From contig CAYGPJ010000014.1 in assembly GCA_964351865.1 (NCBI GenBank), positions 35,556-99,555 of the forward strand: a stretch of 64,000 nucleotides of DNA. Reading direction: 5' to 3'. Positions 2,414 through 64,000 of the stretch are shown here, piece by piece. This DNA is from an uncultured Blastochloridaceae bacterium. Its GTDB lineage: Bacteria; Verrucomicrobiota; Verrucomicrobiia; Methylacidiphilales; JBCBYL01. The position numbers and the translations under genes were made by a program. Numbering within the stretch: position 1 is the stretch's first letter; each line of letters begins with the position of its first letter. The notes under the pieces are model-generated. The model had not been told where the DNA came from, did no database searches, and saw nothing but the letters and a program-made list of their open reading frames with translations.

Positions 2414-2564
2414 AGCGAAGCAGCCTCAACTTCCAGTGCATCCTTGTCAATGGTTAATTTTCAATAAACCGTTTTGCTTGCAGCGTATTCATGTGGCGTA
2501 GGCGCTCGCGGTGGTGTTTTGGTATATGGGCAAAAGAAAATAAGATGATACGATTAATGATCGC

Positions 2565-2894
2565 ATGAGTATATTTTGGCCTTCAGTGAGCAAACGGGAA
2601 TCCATTTGTTATGTGCATATGGTGCTGGCATTTACTCCATTAGCATTCACGCCATTATGGCTTTATCTGCTGGGAGAGGGATGGGTGAAATTTGGGGGAG
2701 GATGTAAGGATGTGGTTCTGATCTTGCCGTATATGATCTGGGCTTTGTTTTTTGGATTTTCATCCATGGCGCTGATACTCAAGCGCTGGCCGTTGCGCGC
2801 GTGGTTGATAGTTGCCAACGTGATTGCAATAGCCTCAGTGTTGGTGCCCGGAAAAAGGGGTCAGGTGACGATATTGACAGTTTCAAACCATTGA
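2565..2894 (+). CDS. Hypothetical small membrane protein; 3' end overlaps an inverted copy of the transposon-flanking repeat
   Basis: 109-aa ORF with about 3 hydrophobic segments; last 10 codons are encoded by the 19-bp element 'aaaggggtcaggtgacgat' (2855-2873). No recognisable family. Confidence 0.3.
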   Translation: MSIFWPSVSKRESICYVHMVLAFTPLAFTPLWLYLLGEGWVKFGGGCKDVVLILPYMIWALFFGFSSMALILKRWPLRAWLIVANVIAIASVLVPGKRGQVTILTVSNH

Positions 2895-3017
2895 AGTCGT
2901 CTAATTCGTTGACTGCCATTCGAGTCAATCCCGATCCCGACTGGGTCCGGTGATCTATATTCAATCTGCGGTTGGCTCGGCATAAGTCATATTCAAACTA
3001 AGATGCAAATTCTGTCA

Positions 3018-3068
3018 AGATCGTCACCTGACCCCTTTCTCCAAAGATCGTCACCTGACCCCTTTCTC
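3018..3068 (+). repeat. Perfect 25-bp tandem direct repeat (2 copies, 'aagatcgtcacctgacccctttctc') immediately upstream of transposase remnant; 19-bp inverted copy at 2855-2873
   Basis: Read directly: 3018-3042 and 3044-3068 are identical; the reverse complement of the core occurs at 2855-2873. Confidence 0.85.
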
Positions 3069-3075
3069 GACCCAT

Positions 3076-3831
3076 CTGTATCTTGAAACGCCGCAGGGTA
3101 ATCTCAGCCAAGCGATGAGCTGGCTGCAGACAACGTTCACCATCCGTTACAATCGAAAGAAAAAGCGTGTAGGTCATTTGTTTCAAGGACGCTACAAGGC
3201 TCAATTGGTCGAGGACGATCACTACGGGCAGGAATTGATCGAATACATTCATTTGAATCCAATTCGCAAACGAAAGAACGGTCGGGTGATTCAGTTCGGC
3301 GACTGGGAGCAATTGATAAACTACCCATGGAGCAGTCATTTCCAGTATAGTCGTAGCGAGGAAGATTCACGAGTGCCCGTGAACGTTAAATATTTAAAGT
3401 TCTGGGGAAAAGATGAAACAACCGGACGTGCGGCATACCGCAAAAGCTTGAGGAAGCTGGTGACCAATGACGTTCCAGTGGATCCATTTACTGAAATTCA
3501 GGAAAGTCTGGCGATGGGGAGTAAAGATTTCCTCAAGAAAGCAAAAGAGATGGTGGCCGCCAAATCAGGCAAAACCGAAAAAAAGAAAAAGAAGCGCTGG
3601 CAGGCGGTAGATCGTGAAGCGGAAATTAGAAAACGACTCAATAAAGAACGGATAAACGGGTGATGATCTGGGCATTGGTTAGCCTGGCAGGAGTTTCAGG
3701 GGTGAAGTTGGCAAGTGAATTTGGGTATGGGGACGGCAGTGGAATTTACCGTGTGGTGCAGCGATTGAATAAAAAGGCCCAGCACGATGAAGTGCTGTAT
3801 AAGAAGTTGGAAGCGCTGAAAAATCAGTCAA
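3076..3831 (+). pseudogene. Degenerate COG1943 (RayT / IS200-like Y1) transposase-like gene with C-terminal DnaA_C-like HTH; N-terminally truncated and frameshifted near 3660
   Basis: Frame 1 (to 3663) encodes 'LETPQGNLSQAMSWLQTTFTIRYNRKKKRVGHLFQGRYKAQLVEDDHYGQELIEYIHLNPIRK', the conserved core of the RayT/IS200-like family. The HUH N-terminal part is missing. After a frame change at about 3660 the sequence continues as 'LASEFGYGDGSGIYRVVQRLNKKAQHDEVLYKKLEAL', which resembles a DnaA C-terminal-type HTH. The antisense ORF 2998-3339 is spurious. Confidence 0.6.
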
Positions 3832-3920
3832 GAGTCAAGCCACGACCCCGAAGAAGAGTCAAGCCACGACCCCGAAGAGACCCCGAAGAGAGGTGTAAGA
3901 GTCAAGCCACGACCCCGAAG
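3829..3920 (+). repeat. Three tandem copies of a 20-mer 'gtcaagccacgaccccgaag' (REP-like); fourth copy at 5526-5550
   Basis: Copies at 3832-3851, 3858-3877 and 3901-3920. A variant 'gtcaagcctcgaccccg' sits at 5531-5547. The ORF 3660-3950 that 'encodes' RVKPRPRR repeats is an artefact of this DNA repeat. Confidence 0.8.
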
Positions 3921-3995
3921 AGGTGTAAAGGTATAAAAGTGGTAAGGTAGGAAAGTGGCAGCTCAATGCTAGCTCTCCCGTCATTTACCAATCAG

Positions 3996-4724
3996 CTACT
4001 TAGACGTAATCTCCTGAAGCCAGGCGATGAATTTTTCGGGTTGGCTCTTATGTCCACCTCCCGGAATTTCTTCGGTTTTGAGTTCCTTGGCTTTGAAGTC
4101 TTCTTCCAGATATTTGGCCAGGGCCGGATTCTGTTTCCCTGTCAGCGGGGCATCGTTGTCGCTCCAGAACATGTAGATGGGCTGCCGTTTCCAGCGGCTG
4201 GCAAGATCGACGCGCTCCGGGCAATTAGCGCTGCGGTAACACATGGCGGTGAAAACCTTATCATATTCCTCAGCTATGATCATCCATCCGGCATAACCTC
4301 CTCCACTATGGGCAGTGTACACCACCCAGTCCTCATCGTATTCCAGACTGTCCGTCACTCGCTCGATAACTTCCTCGAGGTAATCGACATCCTCAGGAAT
4401 GTGTTTGGAGTGTCGGGAAGAGCGCAAATCAAGGGTAACGGCAATGAAAGGAAATTTCTCAGCACGGTCTTTCCACTGATTCATTTCTTTAGTGGCGGAT
4501 CCCCCATTGGGATGGCCGAAGAAAACCAGTGGTAGGGGACCTTCTTTACCGTAGGCGGTGGGGAGGTAGACAGAAAACTGGTTGTCTTCTGTTCGAGCTT
4601 CCACCGTATACGTCTCCAGTCCTGGCTCAGTCTGCAGTTTATCAGCTGCATGCACGCCTGTGGTAATCATCAGGAGTGCAGTAATCCATGTGGTCCATTG
4701 ACGGCTAGTGGAGTGATAATACAT
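3996..4724 (-). CDS. Secreted alpha/beta-hydrolase fold esterase (dienelactone hydrolase / PHB-depolymerase-like)
   Basis: 242 aa; signal peptide; 'FFGHPNGG' oxyanion-region-like motif and 'TAHSGGGYAG' nucleophile elbow (G-x-S-x-G). Confidence 0.6.
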   Translation of the reverse strand: MYYHSTSRQWTTWITALLMITTGVHAADKLQTEPGLETYTVEARTEDNQFSVYLPTAYGKEGPLPLVFFGHPNGGSATKEMNQWKDRAEKFPFIAVTLDLRSSRHSKHIPEDVDYLEEVIERVTDSLEYDEDWVVYTAHSGGGYAGWMIIAEEYDKVFTAMCYRSANCPERVDLASRWKRQPIYMFWSDNDAPLTGKQNPALAKYLEEDFKAKELKTEEIPGGGHKSQPEKFIAWLQEITSK

Positions 4725-4834
4725 GCGGAATCTTTAACTAGAGAGCTGAGGTTGTAAATAGAAGAAAAATTGAGATCACGAAGTGCCAATATAACCGCAT
4801 TGACAATATGTCTCTATTAATATAGACATAAATA

Positions 4835-5074
4835 GTGAAAGCGAAGATTGTGGATCTGCGATACCGCACCAAAGATGTTCTCGCTTCCCTGGAGCGTGGC
4901 GAGTCGGTGGAAATTACCAGTCACGGTAAATTGAAGGGGGTTATTGAGCCGGTCAAATCATCGGACAGTAAGAAATCCATGCGCGTGCAGGAGCATCCGA
5001 TGTTTGGCAGCGTGCCAGATAAGAAGAGTGTGGATGAGATAATTGATGCGCTGCGTGGTGCTCGTTATTCCTGA
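4835..5074 (+). CDS. Type II antitoxin (Phd/YefM-VapB-like)
   Basis: 79 aa, GTG start. The N-terminal '[35 protein letters not shown]' matches the antitoxin beta-alpha fold pattern. It ends 3 bp before the start of the PIN toxin gene. Confidence 0.6.
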
Positions 5075-5076
5075 CT

Positions 5077-5457
5077 ATGCTGTTTGATACAGACATCCTG
5101 ACTTGGGTGCAGCGTGGTAGCGAGAAAGCCGCCAATGTGATCAATCGATCCGAAAAGCGGACCATTTCTCTGGTCAGCTATCTGGAATTCATTCAGGGGG
5201 CACGGGATCAGAAACACCTGAAGTTGAATCGGGATTTTCTAAAGACACTTGAATTCTCAGTCGTGCCACTCGATGAACAGATTGGCCATCGCGCTGCTAT
5301 TTACATCGAATCGTATGGGCTGTCCCACCACACGCGCATGGCAGATGCCCTGATAGCAGCGACCGCAGTCGAATCCGGCTTAACCCTCTGCACGGCCAAT
5401 GCGAAGCATTACCGGCAAATACCAGAGTTAGAGCTGAAGGTTTTGAAATTAGGGTAG
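5077..5457 (+). CDS. vapC: PIN-domain toxin VapC
   Basis: 126 aa; 'MLFDTDIL' N-terminal acidic motif typical of PIN domains; immediately follows the antitoxin. Confidence 0.75.
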
Positions 5458-5745
5458 GTTATTTTACAGGGGAAAAGAAATAGGGGTGGAACAAAAATAG
5501 GTCTGTCCACTAAGTTTCTCAAATGCGTCAAGAGTCAAGCCTCGACCCCGTTGATAAGAGATACAAGATTAGTTTCAAAACAGGGTTCTGACATGAATGG
5601 CATTCTATACACTTCCGGAACTGTCATACGGAATCGATTTGGTTCAGCAAATTCTATGAATTTGAGTGAAAATGAACGACGAAATGCAATTTCATCCTAC
5701 AGAGCTGACGCCAGTGGCGATCGTTACCTATCAGGGAAACCGCTT

Positions 5746-7414: not shown

Positions 7415-7436
7415 AGTCGATTGGACTTCAGGCAGA

Positions 7437-7479
7437 GGGGTAAGGAGTAAGGAGTAAGGATTAAGGATTGTGGATTGGG
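7437..7479 (+). repeat. Heptad direct repeats (taaggag x2, taaggat x2, tgtggat, tgggcgg); related array at 49355-49394
   Basis: Read directly. Shares the 15-mer 'taaggattaaggatt' with the 49355-49394 array. Confidence 0.7.
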
Positions 7480-8597: not shown

Positions 8598-8985
8598 GAG
8601 AGTTGCGTCCAAGTACTTGCCTCTAGAGCGTTTCCGAAATATGTTTTAACATGTAGGGCGAGATTGCATCTCGCCAACTTCCATCCCGGCAAGATGCAAG
8701 CTTTAGGCTGCGCCTAAACTAAACAAGTTAGAAAGTTATTTTGGTCGCGCTATCGCGCTGGGTTTTCTTGCCCTACATCTATTTTCCTCTGTTGATCGTG
8801 TGAGAACTTAATTCGGAAAAGCTCTAGTAGTTCGTTGCACGTCTAAAGACGGGTAGGGCGGTTTGTCTCAAACCGCTTTGGGATACGATACCAAATATGA
8901 TATAGAACCCGAAACGGAAACCAGCGCCTTGAGACAAGACGCCCTACCATACCCGTCATCCTATGCGCAACGAACTACTAGTACT
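8598..8985. repeat. Mosaic of non-coding hairpin repeats (families A, C, E)
   Basis: 8650-8675 'catgtagggcgagattgcatctcgcc' (also at 21578-21610). 8688-8779 is family C (also 40883-40998 rc and 63667-63794). 8822-8981 is a family A element: 17-bp terminal IR 'ctagtagttcgttgcac', enclosing a 20-bp inner IR 'ggtagggcg..ttgtctcaa / ttgagacaagacgccctacc'. Confidence 0.8.
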
Positions 8986-9048
8986 TCACAAGTCGCAATT
9001 GGTACGTTCACAGAGTTGCGCTGAAGACGGTTCCCGATATGCTACAGC

Positions 9049-21235: not shown

Positions 21236-21290
21236 GCCCGCATTTAGAGCATTTTCGAATGGTGTTCTAACACTGATTCAGGTGGCCCAC

Positions 21291-21612
21291 GATAGGGGAC
21301 GGAGTAATATTTTCCGTGCAAGTGGTATAGGTCCTATGAAAGCAGGGTGGCAGGAAAAAATTACTCCGTCCCCTATCGTTCAGCGATTTGCTGAATTAAT
21401 ACTGAATGTCGCAGATATGCGATTTTATCGGAGCCAGATCTTCAGAGAAAAGACTTTCGCGTATTTCGCGGTTAATTTATTTCTGGAAAAATGGCTCAGT
21501 TCTTTTAACGGGGATAAGAGGGCAGGACTTATAGCGTTTCCGAATTAAGTTCTCACACGGTGACCTGATTAAAATACATGTAGAGCAAGATTGCATCTCG
21601 CCCTACATGTTT
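21291..21612. repeat. Family D and family E repeat elements
   Basis: 18-bp perfect IR 'gataggggacggagtaat…attactccgtcccctatc' (21291-21377). 21536-21612 'agcgtttccgaattaagttctcacac…catgtagagcaagattgcatctcgccctacatg' matches 8627-8675 and rc of 8785-8815. The region 21360-21450 recurs inverted at 63850-63968. ORF 21234-21548 is spurious. Confidence 0.8.
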
Positions 21613-21681
21613 GAACATCATTCGAAAACGCTCTCAATCTTCAATGTATCACGTGATACATTGAAGATTGGCGCGGTGATA

Positions 21682-26265: not shown

Positions 26266-26620
26266 ATGAGTAGTTCATTCGGGCTGTAGAGAGGGGTAGG
26301 GTTCCTCGGTCGCGGTATCCCCAAGCGCCGATCCCGACACCATGTGTGAGCGGAGGTCGAATCGGCGCCTTGGGACCCGTCGCCGCTAAGGCTATGCCGA
26401 GGCAAGCAAGACGCCCTACCTAGGCGTTTCGCAATTTATTTGCCGCACGGTTTGGTAATGCGTCGGTAAGAAATCCTACGGATATTCTCACCCTACACGG
26501 GGAAAATGTAGGACGAGAATGTCCGGCTGTTGCCGGACTTCTTGTCAAACGCCTTGATCATTGCGGCAGATTAATTAGATACCGCTCTAATCGTCAAAGT
26601 ATGTGCAATGGACTACTAGA
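26266..26620. repeat. Family A mosaic repeat element
   Basis: Termini 'gagtagttcattc' / 'gcaatggactactag'; inner 'gggtagggttcc…ggcgccttgggacccg…caagacgccctacc' hairpins. Confidence 0.8.
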
Positions 26621-27763: not shown

Positions 27764-27995
27764 ACTAGTAGTTCATTGGATGTGTAGTGAGGGGTAGGGC
27801 GTGTTGTCCCCAACGCGCCGAGGCGTAGCTTGGTGAACCCGGCACCTTGGGACAAGACGCCCTACCTTAATCCTCAAAGGTTTTGTAATGCACTAATAGT
27901 AGACCGTGCAAGACGATATGACGGGAATTGCAGGCCGAGATTGGATCTTGTCGCATTCACCAATCGCTTTCACAACCGGCAAGATACAATCTTAC
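27764..27995. repeat. Family A element (27764-27903) followed by family B element (27896-27995; second copy 40839-40885)
   Basis: 'actagtagttcattgg…gggtagggcgtgttgtcccc…ccttgggacaagacgccctacc…aatgcactaatagtag'; then 'tagtagaccgtgcaagacgatatgacgggaattgcaggccgaga', shared with 40839-40882. Confidence 0.8.
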
Positions 27996-28020
27996 CCTAC
28001 AGTCGGAAAAACTGATGGAA

Positions 28021-40834: not shown

Positions 40835-40998
40835 TAGTAGACCGTGCAACATGATATGACAGGAACTGTAGGCCGAGAAAACCCAGCGCGATAGCGCGGC
40901 CAAAAAAATAATTTCTAACTTGTTTAGTTTAGGCGTAGCCTAAAGCTTGCATCTCGGCTCCTTCTAAACTGTCGAGATGCAATCTCGACCTACATTTT
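40835..40998. repeat. Family B + family C repeat elements (reverse orientation)
   Basis: 'tagtagaccgtgcaacatgatatgacaggaactgtaggccgaga' followed by the reverse complement of family C 'gcaagctttaggc…cgcgctatcgcgctggg'. Confidence 0.8.
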
Positions 40999-41029
40999 TT
41001 CAACCCGCCGATGCATCCTGCATCAAGGA

Positions 41030-49299: not shown

Positions 49300-49354
49300 A
49301 CGGCAAACATTATACGAATGTTTCCTGCAGGCGCAAATGGGTGTGGGAAAAAAT

Positions 49355-49394
49355 GGGTAAGGATTGAGAATTAAGGATTAAGGATTAAGACTGG
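49355..49394 (+). repeat. Heptad direct repeats 'taaggat' in divergent promoter region (shares 15-mer with 7437-7479)
   Basis: 'gggtaaggattgagaattaaggattaaggattaagactgg'. Confidence 0.7.
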
Positions 49395-63655: not shown

Positions 63656-63666
63656 TCGGGGACTCT

Positions 63667-63968
63667 AGGGCAAGATAGCATCTTGCCGGAATGATCATTG
63701 GCGAGATGCAAGCTTTAGGCTACGCCTAAACTAAACGAGTTAGAAATCATTGGTATTCTCCGCGCTATCGCGCTGGGTTTTCTCGCCCTACATGACCATC
63801 TCCTGTTGGCGAAACATGTTGAGCGAATCGTATGATAGCTGACGCATCCAATAGATGAAGCGCCGCAACTCCGAAAGGATTCGCGAGAGATCTCCGATAA
63901 AATCGCGAGTCTGCGAAATGCTGCATCGACTTACCAAAGCGCTGAACGCTAGGGGACGGAGTAATTTT
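63667..63968. repeat. Family C (63667-63794) and inverted family D (63850-63968) repeat elements
   Basis: 'ggcaagatagcatcttgcc…gcgagatgcaagctttaggctacgcctaaactaaacgagttagaaa…cgcgctatcgcgctgggttttctcgccctacat'; 'tccgataaaatcgcgagtctgcg…cgctgaacgctaggggacggagtaa' is the reverse complement of 21360-21440. Confidence 0.8.
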
Positions 63969-64000
63969 TTCCTACCATCCCGTTTTCAAAAGGCCAATAC

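Follow-up and report, generated by a model that had tools for sequence, protein, structure and literature searches.

A probable decayed TIRtron with relic terminal inverted repeats of two types in an uncultured Blastochloridaceae bacterium

In this study, we analysed a window of 64,000 nucleotides (nt) from a contig of an uncultured Blastochloridaceae bacterium (CAYGPJ010000014.1, positions 35,556 to 99,555), in which a preliminary description had reported a degenerate transposase gene flanked by short repeats. The locus is very probably a pseudogenised TIRtron, that is, a TIRYT gene (TnpA_REP subclass 2.1, which we take to be group 1 of the REP-associated tyrosine transposases, RAYTs, of Bertels) together with relic terminal inverted repeats (TIRs) of two types. 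It belongs to a kind already known, here in a decayed state, is ordinary for its family and does not represent a new system. RAYT-like genes with long TIRs instead of repetitive extragenic palindromes (REPs) were described as TIRtrons/TIRYTs by Di Nocera, De Gregorio and Rocco (2013; BMC Genomics 14:522, PMC3733652). According to the parts of that article drawn on here, the TIRs have a common GGGGWSAS motif, keep a constant spacing to the gene or overlap its 3′ end, and form families found as singles, dimers or clusters. The corresponding parts of Quentin et al. (2018; BMC Genomics 19:475, PMC6006769) place 20 of 26 TIRYTs in TnpA_REP subclass 2.1, which is characterized by the motifs NH[YF]H, FQ, Y[IV]HLNP and SS (Table 1 of that article), a C-terminal Bac_DnaA_C or helix-turn-helix (HTH)-like domain, low copy number and genes without REP-like neighbours. 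GGGGWSAS is described there as unlike the DnaA box, and the target of the HTH is left open.

As far as these parts of the two articles describe the group, the window gene resembles a TIRYT in its RAYT-like Y1 HUH domain, its FQ, Y[IV]HLNP and SS motifs and its C-terminal Bac_DnaA_C-like HTH. The resemblance to a TIRtron extends, on the same sources, to TIRs that start with GGGGWSAS and are not palindromic REPs, to a right TIR lying over the 3′ end of the gene, to the occurrence of TIRs as singles, dimers and clusters, and possibly to a low copy number per genome. The window copy differs from the described TIRtrons in being a pseudogene that keeps its right end only and lies beside a second type of TIR. 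With respect to the two-sided flank of a TIRtron, its own right TIR is present at 3826-3849 and the left one was deleted with the 5′ end (Table 1).

The coding remains were delimited with a family hidden Markov model (HMM) built from 105 full-length relatives and run with filters off on six-frame translations of the window. Two segments were matched, one in frame 1 (3064-3651, model positions 59-252, E 2e-70) and the other in frame 3 (3648-3833, model positions 252-313, E 1e-15), and beyond these two segments the model found no other Y1-like or TIRYT coding in the whole window, an N-terminal relic included. Frame 1 from 3067 reads STHLYLETPQGNLSQAM…GHLFQGRYK…YIHLNP…WSSH… and ends at a stop at 3661-3663, the in-frame succession up to YIHLNP being as previously described. 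The earlier assignment to a decayed RAYT-like gene (COG1943, Y1 HUH) is borne out by the family HMM and by three lesions.

The first lesion is a 5′ truncation through which model positions 1-58 (codons 1-61), the 5′ untranslated region and the left TIR are gone. The DNA homology to locus L001, which carries the intact gene of the best homologue (P0002, 52% identity), begins at 3073, corresponding to codon 62 of P0002 and to the second His of NHYH, and the truncation point maps to 3069-3072. Half of the HUH motif is kept, the first His and everything N-terminal to it being deleted (NHYH to ..TH), and the class-2 Y motif Y[IV]HLNP (YIHLNP), FQ (GHLFQGRY) and SS (WSSH) are all retained. The preliminary description had considered the HUH/Tyr region missing; this is right for the N-terminus through the first His and wrong for the Tyr motif, since YIHLNP is present. 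The second lesion is a frameshift (Table 1): the HTH lies in another frame, as had been noted, and the shift is at about 3649-3651, some 10 nt before the position of 3660 given for it. The third is a lost stop codon. Homologue C-termini (..S-x-VK-x*) are encoded by GTCAAG(N3)TGACCCC, and the family TGA inside …GTTGACCCC reads CGA here, frame 3 continuing through the repeats to 3950. Because the gene is truncated, window frame 1 stays below threshold with both domain models: it scores 16.8 bits over positions 54-119 of the 121 in Pfam Y1_Tnp, for which the cut-off is 23, and 34.8 bits (E 1.3e-8) against NCBIfam REP_Tyr_transpos, whose curated cut-off is 80. Intact homologues exceed the gathering score of Pfam Y1_Tnp. 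With half an HUH motif, a frameshift and a lost stop, the window copy is a dead relic and not a working enzyme. No promoter-like site was found near the pseudogene in the window. An 18-nt likeness between 2733-2750 and 3663-3680 (MIWAL..) was taken as chance, the HMM giving no TIRYT relic there.

We consider it extremely unlikely that the gene is in fact intact, with a frameshift and a truncation that arose through errors of sequencing or assembly. In favour of such errors, the source has the appearance of a metagenome-assembled contig, assemblies are often broken by repeats, and the Logan contigs covering the locus have their ends by the repeats or shortly beyond them (3013 and 3955). However, Logan contig L014 (ERR3534966) matches the window with 100% identity from 3013 to 5002, a stretch that takes in the frameshift and the tandem repeats of both clusters, and therefore these are not the errors of one assembly; a sequencing error at the frameshift, which the preliminary description had considered, is contradicted by this independent contig. 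Contig L015, from a second run (ERR3534965), is identical over 3955-5002 and covers only the part downstream of the frameshift and the repeats. In addition, the left end is missing together with 61 codons, and no N-terminal remnant is present anywhere in the window.

A database search gave more than 7500 homologues, nearly all of about 317 amino acids (aa) and with Y1_Tnp; those named by their source were from Verrucomicrobiota, Chthoniobacteraceae and Omnitrophota. The HTH fragment of the window alone had no significant Pfam HTH match. A profile of 29 family sequences over positions 223-313 matched structures of DnaA domain IV (2hcb/1l8q, E 3.6e-5; 8btg, E 1.3e-3; 1j1v, E 3.3e-3), and the distant member P0113 matched Pfam Bac_DnaA_C (PF08299) with an E of 6.8e-6, its 26.5 bits falling short of the gathering score (31.5). 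These profile matches support, at the level of the family, the earlier reading of the domain as a DnaA_C-like HTH.

The ends of the element were examined in 11 intact genes, the encoded proteins having 33-52% identity to the pseudogene translation. TIRs were present on both sides in nine of them, on the left only in one (L037) and on neither side in one (L018), with the left TIR about 55 bp upstream of the ATG and the right one overlapping or closely following the stop. In L001, for instance, the P0002 gene is enclosed by two 25-nt arms that form a perfect inverted repeat (GGGGTCAACGCTTGACAATTGACAA and its complement); the one on the left is 53 nt upstream of the ATG, and the one on the right encodes …SIVKR* plus the stop. 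The arms share one plan, GGGGTC followed after 4-7 nt by a pair of TTGAC(A) hexamers in direct repeat, spaced by about 7 nt (GGGGTC-N(4-7)-TTGAC-N(1-3)-TTGAC, about 25 nt). This interior with a conserved direct TTGAC(A) pair of period about 7 nt is a trait of the present clade that is not mentioned in the parts of PMC3733652 and PMC6006769 drawn on here. In many family members the C-terminus reads S-x-V-K/E/N-x, the translation of the right arm, and extra copies of an end are found nearby in five of the 11 intact loci. In L007 the inner TTGACA is the −35 box of a sigma-70-like promoter (11/12 match) just before the gene; the left TIR may also drive expression of the gene, the promoter match being that of L007 only.

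Some of these intact relatives deserve a comment of their own. L006 has an intact homologue with three left-end and at least seven right-end TIR copies (2876-2968 and 3940-4200), and its duplicated units extend over the final 50 nt or so of the gene and over an invariant outer flank, AATCG. L027 contains two TIRYT paralogues (58-1095 and 2453-3455), 1.4 kb apart and each with its own TIR type; in paralogue L027a both inner hexamers are TGCACA in place of TTGACA, the change being the same in both. P0041 (L016-L025, e.g., L018 683-1636) is an identical 317-aa protein found in 17 metagenome contigs, always directly upstream of mraZ-rsmH-ftsL-ftsI. It has no TIR pair, just a right-oriented fragment GTTGACCCC before its ATG, and looks like a fixed, possibly domesticated copy.

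Both repeat types of the window align in register with the TIRs of the homologues, type A as GGGGTCAGGTGACGAT(A/C)TTGACAG and type B as GGGGTCGTGGCTTGACTCTTGAC, and judged by this alignment both are clearly members of this TIR family. The type B sequence AAGAGTCAAGCCACGACCCCGAAG begins at 3830, 3854, 3897 and, in a fourth copy, 5530. Because it is located exactly at the site expected for the right arm, in the last codons, type B is, on sequence grounds, the pseudogene's own right end, tandemly multiplied and accompanied by a solo copy 1.6 kb downstream. The preliminary description had overlooked these repeats at the gene's 3′ end, which form a second cluster, and had taken the upstream 25-mer (type A) for the end of the gene; the gene's own right end is instead formed by the type B 24-mers at 3826-3916, which differ from that 25-mer. 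In the 64 kb, type B was found in no inverted copy. The skeleton GTCA-N(1-9)-GACCCC occurs eight times in the 64 kb against 0.94 expected, seven of the eight within 2857-5549, and all type A and type B copies of the window fall at 2850-5549.

Type A is the repeat reported previously. The 25-mer AAGATCGTCACCTGACCCCTTTCTC does form a perfect tandem repeat, with exact copies at 3017-3041 (one base off the start reported for the first copy) and 3044-3068 and a period of 27; three matches were found in the window against none in shuffles. The third, inverted copy at 2851-2875 has two mismatches, and its exact 19-nt core, which had been placed at 2855-2873, is found at 2854-2872. The full inverted repeat has arms of 31 nt (2850-2880 and 3012-3042), 94% complementary and separated by 131 nt. 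The left TIRs of intact homologues (GGGGTCAACTCTTGACACTTGACA) share the register of copy 1, whose start, GGGGTCAG, fits GGGGWSAS exactly, and copy 2 retains the family TGA where the stop codon usually sits. The family HMM gave no match in any of the six frames of the interior (2881-3011), which has no TIRYT coding similarity, and as single-stranded DNA (ssDNA) the segment 2845-3075 folds into a single long hairpin via the type A arms (dG −42, z −5). As judged from this arrangement, type A represents the ends of a separate, gene-less mini-element (2850-3042), similar to a MITE or a REPIN, plus one extra tandem copy. As had been described, the inverted copy lies inside the 3′ end of a small open reading frame (ORF, 2565-2894). 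Its 109-aa product is hydrophobic and has no Pfam or NCBIfam match, its last 14 codons or so (…GKRGQVTILTVSNH*) are encoded by type A copy 1, and it may represent either a case of an intragenic TIR or a spurious ORF.

A scan for the 19-mer ATCGTCACCTGACCCCTTT gave two matches in the set genome_contigs and three in metagenome_contigs, sets that do not contain the source genome. Four of the five were taken as chance, having no similarity beyond the 19-mer (L009 is the same as L013, apparently coding). The match in L010 (3541-3567; CAYTLD010000168.1, from a metagenome-assembled genome (MAG) labelled Blastochloridaceae) is a solo type A copy, with 27 nt identical to 2854-2880; it is intergenic, without a TIRYT gene, and its contig is otherwise unrelated to the window. 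Among the C-termini of the 105 full-length homologues, none fits type A coding (..VKIVT*).

Table 1. Coordinates of the features of the TIRtron relic and of the REP regions in the window.
Feature	Position	Strand	Description
TIR type A copy 1	2850-2880	+	left-end orientation; GGAAAAAGGGGTCAGGTGACGATATTGACAG; GGGGWSAS motif as GGGGTCAG
Mini-element interior	2881-3011	.	131 nt between the type A arms, gene-less
TIR type A copy 2	3012-3042	+	right-end orientation, inverted with respect to copy 1; CTGTCAAGATCGTCACCTGACCCCTTTCTCC
TIR type A copy 3	3044-3068	+	partial tandem copy: outer 25 nt including the outer flank TTTCTC
TIRYT pseudogene part 1	3073-3651	+	frame 1; from the second His of HUH through GHLFQGRYK, YIHLNP, WSSH and linker
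Frameshift	3649-3651	+	frame 1 to frame 3, net −1, between ..LNKE and DKRVMIWALV..
TIRYT pseudogene part 2	3648-3833	+	frame 3; DnaA-domain-IV-like HTH
TIR type B copy 1	3826-3849	+	AGTCAAGAGTCAAGCCACGACCCC, reverse complement GGGGTCGTGGCTTGACTCTTGACT; overlaps the gene 3′ end (..SRVKPRP)
Further type B tandem copies	3854-3916	+	3854-3873, fragment 3868-3884, 3897-3916; outer flank GAAGA each
Solo TIR type B	5526-5549	+	orientation as the cluster; one core mismatch; both inner hexamers kept
REP regions	8624-8990, 21245-21634, 26363-26618, 27767-28001, 40835-41000, 63661-64000		larger composite intergenic repeats

The repeats might be thought to be products of replication slippage, or regulatory sites, which neighbour the pseudogene by chance, the copies of each cluster being arranged head-to-tail with a common outer flank. 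This is very unlikely, however, as both types are in register with the TIRs found in nine of the 11 intact homologues (GGGGTC end, TTGAC hexamers), type B lies exactly where a right TIR overlaps the gene end, and a 27-nt identical type A copy is present in the unrelated MAG contig L010. Slippage may have multiplied the ends, yet the units multiplied are TIRs.

The preliminary description had regarded the locus as the remains of a REPtron, in which a RAYT gene inserted with its REPs, decayed, and had earlier seeded the REP-like repeats of the window. REPtrons, consisting of a RAYT/TnpA_REP gene with REPs, bacterial interspersed mosaic elements (BIMEs) or REP doublets forming hairpins (REPINs), were reportedly defined in work by Nunvar in 2010, Bertels and Rainey in 2011, and Ton-Hoang and Messing in 2012. 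The likeness is considerable: the catalytic domains are homologous, a short repeat stands in inverted copies on both sides of the gene, inverted doublets without a gene occur (the 2850-3042 mini-element being REPIN-like in layout), and ssDNA cleavage and rejoining are presumed in both. Some sources call the homologues RayT, and the pseudogene has the sub-threshold REP_Tyr_transpos match given above. Furthermore, the window does contain a true GTAG-tagged REP family (TGTAGGGCGAGA..), with 11 TGTAGGGCRAGA heads against 0.38 expected, mostly as REPIN-like inverted doublets with a spacing of about 115 nt, located at 8.65, 21.6, 26.5, 28.0, 40.9 and 63.7 kb.

These REPs are, however, unrelated to the TIRs: the two have no sequence in common, no REP flanks the pseudogene, and no cognate RAYT gene for the REPs was found in the window, where the family HMM gave no other Y1-like coding. 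The REP unit at 8649-8675 folds strongly (dG −8.4, z −4.7), whereas single TIR units as ssDNA have a dG of 0 to −1.1 kcal/mol (z −0.75 to +0.76), and the corresponding TIR units of L007 and L001 form only a weak 5-bp stem. The TIR units thus differ from REPs in having no hairpin, no palindrome and no 5′ GTAG tag, and the gene differs from that of a REPtron in its extra HTH domain. Nor is there any sign of hundreds of dispersed copies, those seen being in the 64-kb window plus the solo copy of L010, and the absence of REP-like neighbours agrees with that reported for subclass 2.1 in the parts of PMC6006769 cited above. The idea of a REPtron is thereby largely refuted, and we regard it as highly improbable. 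What stands of the earlier proposal is that the flanking repeats are end sequences of an element; they are hairpin-free GGGGWSAS TIRs and not REPs, which makes the element a TIRtron, and the gene is unlikely to have been the source of the REPs of the window. A scan of the whole window against Rfam gave no family.

The remaining possibility, a decayed insertion sequence (IS) of the IS200/IS605 "peel and paste" type with subterminal hairpins, has hardly any probability. Single-strand HUH/Tyr chemistry would, by analogy, be shared with the TnpA of IS608 and ISDra2, and there is the weak match to Pfam Y1_Tnp (16.8 bits, below the gathering score of 23). In contrast, the Y motif is the class 2 Y---NP and not the class 1 Y---Q, the ends are inverted repeats without stable hairpins and not subterminal hairpins that share one orientation on the two sides, the proteins are of about 317 aa with an HTH domain, and no tnpB is present. 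IS200/IS605 elements have neither TIRs nor an HTH domain, and occur as multi-copy, near-identical insertions.

Several observations weigh against the interpretation of the locus as a decayed TIRtron with two types of TIR. The start of type B, GGGGTCGT, fits GGGGWSAS at six of eight positions, departing at positions 7-8, and no left type B TIR survives, so that it is the right end only which marks the element as the gene's own. As regards type A, no intact gene with such ends, and hence no gene cognate to the 25-mer, was found among the homologues. The copy counts of types A and B apply to the 64-kb window and not to the source genome. P0041 and P0065 each occur in one context across many contigs (for P0065, a single shared context in the 10 contigs read out of 13), with no sign of recent mobility. 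The tandem end copies share their outer 5-nt flank within a cluster (agaaa/tcttc), and simple tandem duplication fits these shared flanks at least as well as copying by a transposase.

HUH Y1 enzymes such as the TnpA of IS608 and the TnpA_REP of Escherichia coli cut and rejoin ssDNA by means of an HUH-bound metal and a Tyr. By analogy with them, the N-terminal domain of a TIRYT would cut and rejoin ssDNA at or near the GGGG end through the Tyr of Y---NP, the HTH may bind the hexamer repeats of the TIR or may target replication forks, and the ends would be copied into dimers and clusters. In the window, the outer edge of type A copy 3 (3068) is at most 4 nt from the start of the pseudogene homology (3073). 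Because of this closeness to the truncation, a type-A-associated rearrangement most likely destroyed the gene by removing its left end and first 61 codons, and the left end would have been replaced by type A end copies. One-sided tandem arrays of ends which include a fixed outer flank are found in the window and in L005, L006, L008, L027 and L036. Since such arrays coincide here with a foreign TIR fused within 4 nt of the break, the locus might be a natural footprint of TIRYT activity, in which the enzyme cuts a few bases outside GGGG and copies or joins single ends and one TIRtron inactivates another, the hexamer pair (TGCACA in L027a) being the binding site of the HTH; we offer this as a speculative proposal that is more probably wrong than right.

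With respect to the surroundings of the relic, a 242-aa ORF on the minus strand (3996-4724), with no Pfam match, lies between the type B cluster and the solo type B copy, and a pair formed by a Phd/YefM-like antitoxin and a PIN (VapC) toxin (4835-5457) lies upstream of the solo copy. Comparison of the window with L001 gave no similarity outside the TIRYT gene, though L001 also has an adjoining PIN toxin. Elsewhere in the window, two tandem arrays of heptamers (AGGAGTA / TAAGGAT; GGGTAAGGAGTAAGGAGTAAGGATTAAGGATT), alike and both intergenic, are found at 7436-7467 and 49341-49389.

As regards annotation, ORF 3115-3663, which is public as a 182-aa "protein", should be given as the pseudogene of a TIRYT, with the repeats on its flanks marked as relics of TIRs. 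The family to which it belongs is very large and its end architecture is strikingly conserved. In this regard, the two TIR types, the arrays of ends and the break at the edge of a TIR provide concrete substrates and hypotheses for in vitro tests of cleavage by TIRYTs and of binding by their HTH, although the value of this single locus is modest.

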